From contig CAVYHV010000006.1 of assembly GCA_963768425.1 (NCBI GenBank), forward strand, positions 128,001 through 192,000: 64,000 bases of DNA, read 5' to 3'. The notes under the pieces were generated by a model. That model ran no database searches. It saw only the letters and a list, made by a program, of their open reading frames with translations, and had not been told where the DNA came from. Below, in pieces: positions 25,471 to 27,454 of this stretch (position 1 is the first letter of the stretch; every line of letters starts with the position of its first letter). The stretch is from Candidatus Bathyarchaeota archaeon (lineage in GTDB: Archaea; Thermoproteota; Bathyarchaeia; Bathyarchaeales; Bathycorpusculaceae). Position numbers and translations under genes: made by a program.

Positions 25471-25947
25471 TTGCCAGTTAAAGTTGGTGACAAAGCGCCA
25501 GATTTCACTTTGCCTTCGCAGCTGGGCGATAACGTGACGCTTTCAGAGTTCGCAGGCAAAAAGAACGTGGTGCTGTATTTTTATCCGAAAGACGAAACCC
25601 CCGGCTGCAAAACGGAGGCTTGCGCCTTCAGAGATAGCTATGAGGAGCTGACCAGGTTAGGTGCTGAGGTTTTGGGGGTAAGCGGGCAGAGTGTTGCATC
25701 GCACAAGTCTTTTGCAACTCATTACGGTTTGCCCTTCATTTTGCTTAGCGACGAGGGTAACAAAGTACGCAAGCTTTACGACGTCCCCTCCAGTATGGGT
25801 CTTATCCCGGGAAGGGTCACTTACATAATCGACAAGATAGGCATTGTTAGGCACATTTTTAATTCGCAGACTCAGACGCGGCAGCATGTTGAGGAAGCCA
25901 AGGAAACCCTGAAGGAACTTGACAAAGAACAACAAGCGGGAACGTAA
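25471..25947 (+). CDS. bcp: Peroxiredoxin Bcp/PrxQ
   Basis: [19 protein letters not shown] start after GGTGA. Confidence 0.93.
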
Positions 25948-25962
25948 CGCTGGAAGCTTCCA

Positions 25963-27198
25963 ATGCTGAACATATACAATAGTTTGACCCGGAAAATTGA
26001 GCCTTTCCAGCCTGACGAAGACATGCAGGTTAAAATGTACACGTGCGGACCCTCAACCTACCAACCGCCACACATCGGAAACTACCGCACCTTCCTCTTC
26101 GAAGACATATTTCAACGTTACTTAGAGCACCTTGGCTACAAAGTCAAACGACTAATCACACTGACAGATTTAGAAGACAAAGCCATCGCCCAAGCCAAAA
26201 AAGAAAATCTAACTGTAGAAGAAGTGACAAGAAAAAACGAAGCCATCTTCTTCCAAGGCTTCAAGCTCCTCAGAATCAAAACACCTGACTTTCCAGTTCG
26301 GGCTTCATCAGCCGTTGACCAAGCTGCAAGCCTAATCGCTCGACTTGCCGAAAAAAAATACGTGTATTGGGACGAGAATAACGGCGCAAAAAATGCGTAT
26401 TTTGAACCATTCAAATTCAAAGGCTTCGGAAAACTAGCCCATTTAGACATGAGCAAATGGCCCACAAAGAAACGCCGCTTCCACAAGGACACGTATCCAG
26501 GGACGCCGTGGAATAAGGGTGACTTCATAGTTTGGGACGGCTGCAAACAAGGCGGAGTCTGCTATGAAACGCCGATCGGCGGCGGCAGGCCCGCATGGAA
26601 CATCCAGGACGCCGCCATCGTAACTAAACATTTAGGCTTTTCAATTGATGTTGCCTGCGGCGGAATCGACAATTTAGTCCGTCACCACGACTACACGCTT
26701 GCCATTGCTGAAGCCGTAAGCGGCAAACAGTTCAGCCGATACTGGCTTCACGGAGCGCACCTCTTAGTCGATGGCAAAAAAATGTCCAAAAGCATCGGAA
26801 ACGTCATCTACACCGGCGACGTCTTAAAGGAAGGCTTTAGTGGTGAGCAACTAAGATTCTTTCTTATCTACGGGCACTACAGGGAAAAACTAAATTTCAC
26901 TTTCAAGAAGCTTGCTGAAACCAGTCGGAAACTTAACGCCTTCAAGAACATGTTTAAGGAGTTACAAGTGACCAAAGAGGGCAGTTCAAACTCGGAAGCA
27001 GAGGCGCTTATTGGCGGCTTGGTTTCGTCCTTCGAAAACGCCATGAACAACGATTTAGGCGTTAAAACCGCATTCGATAGCCTCTACAAAACAATCTGCG
27101 AACTCCATGCATTGAAGAAGCCGCTAAACGAAAAAGAATCAAAAAAATTATTGGATGCGTTGCGTTGGGTTGATTCTGTGCTTCAATGTATTCTCTAA
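25963..27198 (+). CDS. Cysteinyl-tRNA synthetase paralog with altered active site and no C-terminal anticodon-binding segment
   Basis: CGP, HIGN and KMSKS present; GRPAWNIQD replaces GRPGWHIEC; DNLVRHHDYT replaces DLxFPHHENE; 411 aa. Confidence 0.85.
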   Translation: MLNIYNSLTRKIEPFQPDEDMQVKMYTCGPSTYQPPHIGNYRTFLFEDIFQRYLEHLGYKVKRLITLTDLEDKAIAQAKKENLTVEEVTRKNEAIFFQGFKLLRIKTPDFPVRASSAVDQAASLIARLAEKKYVYWDENNGAKNAYFEPFKFKGFGKLAHLDMSKWPTKKRRFHKDTYPGTPWNKGDFIVWDGCKQGGVCYETPIGGGRPAWNIQDAAIVTKHLGFSIDVACGGIDNLVRHHDYTLAIAEAVSGKQFSRYWLHGAHLLVDGKKMSKSIGNVIYTGDVLKEGFSGEQLRFFLIYGHYREKLNFTFKKLAETSRKLNAFKNMFKELQVTKEGSSNSEAEALIGGLVSSFENAMNNDLGVKTAFDSLYKTICELHALKKPLNEKESKKLLDALRWVDSVLQCIL

Positions 27199-27205
27199 TT
27201 CCGAG

Positions 27206-27454
27206 TTAGACCAGGTCGCCTACGAATTTGACCCGAGCAAAATTTTCTTCCCGATGTGGCGCCGCCTCAAGTTCCCCAGTCAAATCCTTCCCCGCCTGAT
27301 GCATTCCCAAATGGTCACCGTCAGACCAGAGGCCGCTTTCCGAAACGTCGTAGACTTTTCCGTTATAGGCAAAGTATGAGGGTTTGCCATTTTTCCCATT
27401 GTTCTCTTCAAGTTCTTGCTTAGTTACTTTTCGCTGCTCAGTCACAAAAACCAC
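27206..27454 (-). CDS. Cytochrome b5-like heme/steroid-binding protein
   Basis: NGKVYDVS, W..G.H...HQAGKDLT, APH. Confidence 0.88.
   Translation of the reverse strand: MVFVTEQRKVTKQELEENNGKNGKPSYFAYNGKVYDVSESGLWSDGDHLGMHQAGKDLTGELEAAPHREENFARVKFVGDLV

Follow-up and report, generated by a model that had tools for sequence, protein, structure and literature searches.

The locus at positions 25471-27454 of the window, the 64,000-nucleotide stretch of a Candidatus Bathyarchaeota genome that was analysed here and to which all coordinates given without a contig name refer, holds three genes and raises the question of the role of a 411-residue protein derived from cysteinyl-tRNA synthetase (CysRS), which keeps the adenylation motifs of this enzyme but has a rewired zinc and cysteine site. 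The sequence places the protein in a large family, sharply delimited and so far undescribed, that branches from short CysRS. The function that we lean towards, tentatively and from sequence features, is that of an amino-acid ligase which would act independently of tRNA in the manner of MshC, using a Cys/Asp/His metal site.

The gene and the motifs that characterise the family are listed below. Motif spans are numbered in the window protein, and substitutions follow E. coli K-12 CysS as aligned with it.

25963..27198, + strand: CysRS-derived paralog ('NQD / RHHDY' family), 411 residues (open reading frame list; Pfam and NCBIfam matches)
26044..26046, + strand: Cys28, retained metal ligand (E. 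coli C28, MshC C43), in 56 of 56 paralog rows and at least 98% conserved in 238 rows
26071..26082, + strand: HIGN, the class I HIGH signature, residues 37-40 (alignments)
26458..26535, + strand: CP-domain segment W166-W191, the basic loop KWPTKKRRFHK followed by DTYPGTPWNKGDFIVW (conservation over 238 rows)
26596..26610, + strand: WNIQD, residues 212-216, replacing WHIEC (H206N, E208Q, C209D), in 56 of 56 rows and switched relative to 91 canonical rows
26677..26697, + strand: VRHHDYT, residues 239-245, replacing FPHHENE (P233R, E236D, N237Y, E238T) (alignments)
26779..26793, + strand: KMSKS loop, residues 273-277 (alignments; at least 98% conserved)

Compared with E. coli CysS, the window protein retains C28, HIGN, T68, W205, H234, H235 and KMSKS. 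The preliminary description of this DNA, which had reported HIGN, KMSKS and Cys28 as intact and WNIQD, DVACGG and VRHHDYT as changed, agrees with the alignment in all of these points. DVACGG (residues 229-234) replaces DIHGGG, and the His of this motif loses constraint across the family. The zinc ligands of CysRS are Cys28, Cys209, His234 and Glu238 in E. coli numbering; in the family C28 and H234 are kept, position 209, the ligand site altered by the WNIQD change, is Asp in 56 of 56 rows, and Thr occupies position 238 in 52 of the 56. This ligand list is consistent with the account of MshC in the accessible part of PMC9736012, where zinc is bound by C43, C231, H256 and the substrate thiol, i.e. 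by three protein ligands. The 56 rows derive from 73 copies extracted from 74 related loci, less 14 copies shorter than 380 residues and the four most distant loci, plus the window protein. N206, Q208, R233, D236 and Y237 are, like D209, present in all of them, while six canonical CysRS from relatives have H206, E208, P233, E236 and E238 in six of six cases and C209 and N237 in five of six. Of the four loci set aside as most distant, three with bacterial labels bear the signature, and the fourth (Dojkabacteria) is canonical.

The signature was further followed in representatives of clusters formed at 90% identity. Among the best 120 relatives of the window protein, N-Q-D is combined with R-D-Y-x in 119, the remaining one lying outside the search pattern, and among the best 120 relatives of a bacterial member N-Q-D occurs in 119, the exception having S-Q-D. 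The signature is thus carried by 238 of the 240 representatives in these two lists, and the family comprises at least 238 clusters. An alignment of 237 representatives (380-460 residues) and the window protein contains 71 positions conserved at 98% or more across archaea and bacteria. These include C28, G29, P30 and S31, H37, G39 and N40, T68, KMSKS, W212, N213, Q215 and D216, R240, H241, H242, D243 and Y244, and a CP-domain block formed by W166, F173, D176, T177, Y178, G180, W183, N184, G186, D187, F188 and W191. The sites switched relative to 91 canonical full-length CysRS are T31S, Y155F, H206N, E208Q, C209D, P233R and N237Y; a P-G insertion at residues 179-180 of the CP domain corresponds to a gap in the canonical rows, and 42 core positions are common to both groups at 90% or more. 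Because the signature and the adenylation motifs are invariant and the changes are confined to few sites, the alignments indicate that the family has undergone a focused functional shift rather than decay. The active adenylating enzyme of changed specificity envisaged in the preliminary description is a fair reading of these patterns, and the decay feared there is dismissed by the presence of the signature in 119 of 120 relatives in each list.

The gene is very unlikely to be a decaying or catalytically inactive duplicate, or an artefact of assembly. Such an explanation could draw on frame errors elsewhere in the assembly, which affect sepS, SepCysS and the canonical cysS (contig C6, 23.2-27.7 kb), on the frameshifts in several nanopore-derived relatives and on the short copies among those extracted (14 of 73 under 380 residues). 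However, the reading frame is intact here and in 59 of the 73 extracted loci, contigs from RNA libraries cover the gene, and the 71 positions conserved over the 238 archaeal and bacterial rows include all of the adenylation motifs.

An Asp at the position of Cys209 is also present in some full-length CysRS that carry WHIED (P0162, P0204, P0219, P0227 and P0268, and L087, the canonical copy of a relative). Four of the five WHIED representatives also have a Cys at E. coli position 237 (PHHECE or PHHDCE), which in the alignment looks like a relocated zinc ligand. The window family differs from these enzymes in having Asp209 without a compensating Cys at 237.

The paralog comprises a Rossmann core, a CP domain, an SC-fold and a helical bundle, and lacks the anticodon-binding domain. 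It matches Pfam tRNA-synt_1e (3e-73) and scores 303.1 bits with the NCBIfam cysS equivalog TIGR00435, which is under the curated cut-off of 340; the alignment spans model positions 1-400 of 466 and thus lacks the C-terminal region that binds the anticodon. For other members of the family the scores are 290-310 bits (e.g. 290.5 and 309.7), all under 340. With the MshC model TIGR03447, for which the cut-off is 485.1, the paralog scores 168.4 bits and other members 158-189. The nearest solved structures by sequence are the CysRS 8qhp (3.4e-64) and E. coli 1li5 (6.3e-55), with MshC following at about 1e-38. An AlphaFold2 model computed from a 12-row alignment (mean predicted local distance difference test (pLDDT) 87.1, predicted template modelling score (pTM) 0.88, only residues 176-185 having pLDDT under 50) was matched by Foldseek in the PDB to CysRS 8qhp with a template modelling (TM) score of 0.89 and to MshC with TM 0.82-0.84 (8hfn 0.84), while a search of the ESM Atlas gave CysRS and MshC clusters only and nothing new. 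The end of the protein at 411 residues without an anticodon domain, as described earlier, is genuine: a frameshift that removed the C-terminus is ruled out by the cytochrome b5-like gene located 7 nucleotides past the stop codon and by the lengths of the best 120 homologs of the window protein, mostly 410-413 residues.

Domain fusions were considered as a clue to function and dropped, since no fused family members were found and the 42 longer matches, which are at most 36% identical and represent fusions of CysRS with PALP or GT2 domains or eukaryotic forms, fall outside the family. Representatives P0395-P0425 are fusions of CysRS with a pyridoxal phosphate (PLP)-dependent, cysteine-synthase-like PALP domain in Desulfotalea, Thermodesulfobacterium and others, and also include fusions of a CysRS-like domain with a family-2 glycosyltransferase, which could represent a thiol-pathway fusion of the MshC type.

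The origin of the family was examined in a FastTree phylogeny of 74 rows rooted on E. coli, comprising all short or signature-bearing sequences of 150 representatives, one in three of the long canonical ones and extra loci, with MshC not among the rows. The signature family forms a single clade with local support of 100, located inside a wider clade (support 96; nesting 96 and 98) that consists solely of proteins of about 400-425 residues without the anticodon domain. The named members of the wider clade belong to Micrarchaeia, Micrarchaeota and an Aenigmarchaeota genus, and two of them are called cysteine--tRNA ligase. Five short forms of about 410 residues with canonical ligands (P0130, P0143, P0163, P0135 and P0180), at least three of them from DPANN archaea (P0130 from Micrarchaeia, P0143 from 'ainarchaeum'), score 352-393 bits, over the cysS cut-off of 340. 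Pockets of intermediate type are found in P0165 (WNVQC and NHHENT) and in L092 (WNLEC and SHHENE). By this phylogeny the loss of the anticodon domain preceded the rewiring of the pocket, and the short ancestral lineage probably still charges tRNA. Since the loss is ancestral and common to short forms that pass the cysS cut-off, the absence of the domain is no evidence of tRNA independence, which weakens the interpretation given in the preliminary description.

A strong rival explanation, though one of rather low probability, is that the paralog is a specialised backup CysRS that charges tRNA-Cys; it would tolerate a natural inhibitor, a shortage of metal, sulfide or oxidation, and would have been spread by gene transfer and retained alongside the housekeeping enzyme. 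Its position among short forms, some of which are named cysteine--tRNA ligase and pass the cut-off, favours this explanation, as does the retention of W205, of two metal ligands and of every contact used in catalysis and for the alpha-amino group, and the basic CP loop could grip the acceptor stem. Against it, the family itself scores under the cysS cut-off, and seven invariant substitutions are located around the zinc and cysteine site, with the Cys209 and Glu238 ligands lost; the zinc-thiolate bond is regarded as the basis of cysteine selection by CysRS in work cited in the accessible part of PMC9736012.

The distribution of the gene bears on the same explanation. The genome (2.96 Mb, 33 contigs, 91% complete) also encodes a canonical cysS (contig C6, 26072-27463), which scores 387.7 bits on TIGR00435 despite frame breaks, with sepS, SepCysS and a tRNA-Cys gene beside it (contig C6, about 23200-27700). 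The preliminary description had proposed a search for a separate canonical cysS or SepRS/SepCysS, and all three were found. All three are frame-interrupted in this assembly, probably owing to a local assembly fault, because the canonical cysS is intact (over 490 bits, without stop codons) in 17 of 18 relatives from the genus; the only one without a match, G009, is 56% complete. In the canonical cysS residues 113-195 or so are out of frame, after which the frame returns, and SepCysS shows the same pattern, a repeated out-and-back shift that is odd.

The paralog was found in 13 of these 18 same-genus relatives, whereas the 12 genomes in that sample that represent the order's other families all lack it. 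In a class-wide sample of Bathyarchaeia it is present in 49 of 401 genomes, representing nine of 131 genera and five families, with 27 of 40 genomes of the window's own genus among them. In samples from two bacterial phyla, 4 of 167 and 13 of 401 genomes carry it, and each of the three bacterial carriers checked has a further, full-length CysRS match. The source names of bacterial relatives include candidate division KSB1, Desulfohalobiaceae, Desulfobacterales, Desulfosalsimonadaceae and Zixibacteria; the names met in databases for the family were only 'class I tRNA ligase family protein', 'cysteinyl-tRNA synthetase', 'cysteine--tRNA ligase' or 'hypothetical protein'. In a scan of metagenomes with generic patterns, the family members were L088, L089 and, probably, the truncated L091 only. 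The gene is therefore an accessory paralog that is dispensable within the genus. Patchy spread with a second copy always present where checked would be expected of a backup CysRS, but no genome was found with a family member as its only CysRS, the incomplete G009 being the sole one without a canonical match.

Two tRNA-Cys(GCA) genes, both with G1:C72 and U73, are present in the genome, the second being located on contig C6 at 41293-41368 (76 nucleotides). The possibility that this second tRNA-Cys is dedicated to the paralog was dropped, since an identical copy occurs in just one of 60 other genomes of the genus, as judged by BLAST of the 76-nucleotide tRNA, a crude test, and so does not track the paralog. 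ARAGORN found no tRNA within 6 kb of the paralog at six loci (L069, L070, L078, L007, L054 and L058), and in the window only a tRNA-Gln located 9 kb from it. Both results speak against a backup CysRS.

The two genes adjoining the paralog are the following.

25471..25947, + strand: bcp/PrxQ-type peroxiredoxin (Pfam AhpC-TSA 6.1e-40); the largest open reading frame begins at 25384, the likely start being TTG at 25471
27206..27454, - strand: cytochrome b5-like heme/steroid-binding domain protein, 82 residues, convergent with the paralog (Pfam Cyt-b5 2.4e-10)

The TAA stop codon of bcp at 25945-25947 is followed after 15 nucleotides by the ATG of the paralog at 25963 on the same strand, and the stop codon of the paralog and the b5-like gene are separated by 7 nucleotides on opposite strands. 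The open reading frame coordinates and Pfam matches thus bear out the earlier account of a paralog that begins 15 nucleotides past bcp and converges on a cytochrome b5 gene; position 25471, taken there as the start, is an in-frame TTG inside the bcp open reading frame. In the window's family a block recurs that contains udg, two small open reading frames, genes for a methyltransferase and an alpha/beta hydrolase, bcp, the paralog, b5 and a gene for a small membrane protein. Among the 74 related loci, which are close kin, bcp is present in 64 and b5 in 69. Elsewhere in the window, open reading frames judged by eye from their translations seem to resemble an SUI1/eIF1-like protein (21777-22094, - strand), uracil-DNA-glycosylase (22179-22721, - strand) and Mre11 (30747-31952, + strand), the first two recurring in the syntenic block of relatives.

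The 'redox gene cluster' of the preliminary description proves to be specific to this lineage. The divergent members from Bathyarchaeia, which are about 50% identical, lack adjacent bcp and b5 at all six loci; a Y-family DNA polymerase gene is directly downstream at three of the six, and other neighbours are carA (with a 4-nucleotide overlap), formylmethanofuran:tetrahydromethanopterin formyltransferase (Ftr) and a nitroreductase. G017, a 97% complete genome of the same genus that lacks the paralog, has the hydrolase gene and bcp followed after 208 nucleotides by b5, so that just the paralog is absent from between two genes that adjoin each other in any case, and in two other non-carriers of the genus the entire bcp-paralog-b5 block is missing. 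A redox operon as a trait of the family is rejected on the strength of the divergent loci and of the arrangement in G017.

An exporter operon was likewise rejected as a family trait, being confined to one bacterial clade. In this clade, whose members are about 65% identical to each other, genes for an ATP-binding cassette (ABC) ATPase and a permease of the ABC-2 type, resembling NodI/NodJ or DrrAB, are directly downstream of the paralog at all five loci with flanking sequence, with start/stop overlaps of 4 nucleotides in L069, L149 and L150. Such an exporter was found at none of 12 other loci from the phylum of G031 (within 1.5 kb) and was a direct neighbour at none of the six divergent Bathyarchaeia loci, one of which (L155) has an ABC ATPase gene about 2.6 kb from the paralog. 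Transporters of the CNNM/CorC type are encoded near the paralog at L166, L170 and L089, and a MatE protein at L172, which was scanned, and at L174, which was grouped with L172 by BLAST only; further bacterial neighbours are a pyridine nucleotide-disulfide oxidoreductase, a PLP enzyme and housekeeping genes. Neighbours were scanned with Pfam and NCBIfam for some genes at 12 loci and in the window, and most other loci were compared by BLAST only. The only loose theme that recurs is one of exporters and stress genes, and no acceptor-making pathway accompanies the family. The frequent position of the family beside exporters (ABC-2, MatE, CNNM/CorC) or stress genes (bcp, dinB, nitroreductase) is a point in favour of a backup CysRS, a pattern in which the family would resemble drug-resistant aminoacyl-tRNA synthetase paralogs.

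Two loci show the exporter in particular settings. On the metagenome contig L092 (1787-4755), the short CysRS-like gene with an intermediate pocket directly follows genes for an ABC ATPase and an ABC-2 permease related to the exporters of the bacterial members, a hint that the association with the exporter predates the completed rewiring. At L078 (1614-9011), the paralog and the ABC-2 exporter genes are preceded on the same strand by genes for a CAAX-protease-like, an ATP-grasp (PurD-like) and a weakly ATE_C-like protein, the last matching Pfam at 1.7e-4 and the NCBIfam arginyltransferase model at 1.3e-12, both under the cut-off. This arrangement looks like a small biosynthetic cluster, and it is found at one of the five loci of the clade.

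The presence at L078 of a putative, weakly ATE_C-like aminoacyl-tRNA transferase gene and an ATP-grasp gene directly upstream would suit an enzyme that depends on RNA without being a CysRS, either attaching another amino acid to tRNA or, like GluQRS (YadB), aminoacylating a modified nucleoside or other RNA. The changes centre on the amino-acid pocket with the remaining synthetase scaffold conserved, the CP loop is basic, conserved and predicted to be disordered (pLDDT below 50 at residues 176-185 of the model), and the gene stands alone without a metabolic partner, all of which agree with such a role; there is also precedent for paralogs without an anticodon domain that act on RNA, as described in the part of PMC9437257 available. 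However, no partner tRNA or RNA is located near the gene at the six loci or in the window, the L078 arrangement is restricted to a single locus of its clade, and the conservation of the scaffold is uninformative about RNA, given that MshC keeps GHYRED without using tRNA. For the same reason the conservation of the SC-fold (R298, Y306 and R307) was rejected as a sign of tRNA binding. An RNA-dependent enzyme of this kind appears unlikely.

In four metatranscriptome libraries from three studies (wetland and peat), contigs extend from the end of bcp into the 5' part of the paralog, for example one that covers 25757-26520 with a word depth of 47. Other contigs from such libraries contain the 3' end of the paralog together with b5, and the lack of cover at 26558-26927 is uninformative. 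These contigs are about 96-97% identical to the window and therefore come from a related strain, and DNA carry-over is possible; they hint that the paralog is transcribed, and co-transcribed with bcp, in that strain.

If the paralog is an MshC-like ligase, as we tentatively prefer, it would bind a metal via Cys/Asp/His, with Asp in the place of the Cys209 thiolate, and form an aminoacyl-adenylate. All residues required for the binding of ATP and of the alpha-amino group of an L-amino acid are retained (HIGN, KMSKS, G29, S31, T68, W205, GG-x-D and H234/H235), and two of the three protein metal ligands of MshC are retained (Cys28 and His234), with Asp as the third; by analogy, such a site could still hold zinc and a thiolate. 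Its amino-acid substrate would be cysteine or one of the more anionic relatives of cysteine. With the charges of Glu208 and Glu238 gone from the pocket and Arg233 added, a side chain or acceptor of more anionic character may be favoured. The activated amino acid would then be passed, as in MshC, to a non-tRNA acceptor held by the remodelled, invariant segment of the CP domain.

A more specific proposal, possible but at present doubtful, is that of a new ligase derived from an aminoacyl-tRNA synthetase, in which the Cys/Asp/His metal site serves to activate an anionic relative of cysteine (cysteine sulfinate, cysteate, persulfide or phosphoserine) or cysteine itself, and the invariant aromatic CP motif holds the non-tRNA acceptor to which it is joined, which could be a nucleotide, a sugar or a modified base in RNA. 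The product would be an undescribed thiol or aminoacylated metabolite of Bathyarchaeia and sediment bacteria.

Several observations weigh against an MshC-like ligase. There is no conserved pathway partner and the neighbours change by lineage, which matters because an MshC-like enzyme would be expected beside acceptor-making genes. In particular, no thiol-pathway glycosyltransferase, deacetylase or acetyltransferase was found among the neighbours scanned (some genes at 12 loci and in the window; the remainder of the genomes was not searched), and the gene context thus gives no backing to the thiol pathway suggested in the preliminary description. The basic loop KWPTKKRRFHK is located where canonical CysRS have the CP segment of the A-G-A-R-V type and would suit RNA binding. 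Scores with the MshC model place the family at no smaller distance from MshC than ordinary short CysRS, and the ancestral loss of the anticodon domain leaves an architecture compatible with tRNA charging.

The hosts are among the most abundant uncultured archaea of peat and sediment, together with several anaerobic bacterial phyla. If the enzyme makes a new thiol or aminoacylated compound, it would open up redox chemistry in organisms whose low-molecular-weight thiols are uncharacterised. If it charges tRNA-Cys, cysteine could be selected by a Cys/Asp/His site in an enzyme without the anticodon domain, which bears on the evolution of CysRS specificity. In either case these genes cannot safely be annotated as cysS. 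The analysis also shows short DPANN CysRS without the anticodon-binding domain.

To our knowledge, few paralogs of aminoacyl-tRNA synthetases with new chemistry are known, among them MshC, GluQRS, cyclodipeptide synthases and amino acid:carrier-protein ligases. Canonical CysRS (E. coli CysS, 1li5/1u0b; 8qhp) is the top match of the family in sequence and fold and shares the 42 core positions with it. The family differs in scoring under the cut-off, in lacking the anticodon domain, in C209D, E238T, H206N, E208Q, P233R and N237Y and the loss of the DIHGGG His, and in coexisting with a canonical copy as a gene dispensable within the genus. Short DPANN CysRS are alike in length, domain set, clade (support 96) and a CP segment rich in basic residues, but they keep WH/S-I-E-C and the HHENE ligands and pass the cysS cut-off, and the family does neither.

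The part of a review of aminoacyl-tRNA synthetase paralogs that was available (PMC9437257) lists only CysRS* and MshC under CysRS, and a literature search of limited coverage found no paper on the present signature. CysRS* of Desulfobacterales (Mukai et al. 2017) is encoded downstream of a selC* tRNA and selB* and has no anticodon domain, and the CP segment of the A-G-A-R-V type has been linked to reading of the first acceptor base pair, according to the available part of PMC5389517. The family resembles CysRS*, as far as the latter is described there, in being a second CysRS copy without an anticodon domain and with an altered CP segment, and some of its carriers are also Desulfobacterales. 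However, the 'PTVS' CP1 motif reported in that part of the source is found in none of the best 120 bacterial relatives of the family, and no tRNA lies within 6 kb of the gene at the six loci or is linked to it in the window (selB was not searched for). Identity with CysRS* was rejected on the tRNA context and the absence of PTVS, pocket residues being outside the comparison. The Zur-regulated CysRS paralogs (Haas et al. 2009), second copies proposed to serve under metal shortage, keep the zinc-binding residues, as stated in the accessible part of PMC2770081. The family lacks the full set of zinc ligands that the members described there retain, and a zinc-sparing paralog of the Zur type was rejected for this reason.

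A close parallel is offered by MshC, the L-cysteine:GlcN-Ins ligase of mycothiol synthesis (PDB 3c8z, 8hfm), which has about 410 residues, a CysRS fold (TM 0.82-0.84) and no anticodon domain, and keeps HIGH and KMSKS. In the alignment with M. smegmatis MshC (8hfm), which reads WHVEC, FPHHEYS and GHYRED, both have Tyr at 237 and, where E. coli CysS has Glu238, a hydroxyl residue (FPHHEYS in MshC, VRHHDYT in the family, with the helix HHDY[T/N]). MshC holds the alpha-amino group via T46, T83 and the carbonyl of G44, as given in the available part of PMC9736012, and G44, T46 and T83 correspond to G29, S31 and T68, which are invariant in the family. Three rather than four protein metal ligands are predicted to be possible in the family too. 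There are also clear differences: MshC keeps the ligand Cys (C231), where the family has Asp, with the other two ligands retained; P233 is replaced by Arg in the family; MshC hosts are Actinomycetota, and those of the family are Bathyarchaeia and anaerobic bacteria; no neighbours resembling mshA, mshB or mshD were found at the family loci scanned; and the family arises from short archaeal CysRS in a tree without MshC rows. Since MshC-model scores are no higher than those of short CysRS, the shared Y/[ST] is convergence at best. The remark in the preliminary description that MshC keeps the Cys of WHxEC is confirmed by WHVEC in 8hfm. Its further statement that the protein matches neither CysRS nor MshC holds for WNIQD, which differs from both, but was overstated with regard to the following helix, where MshC too has Tyr237 and no Glu238.

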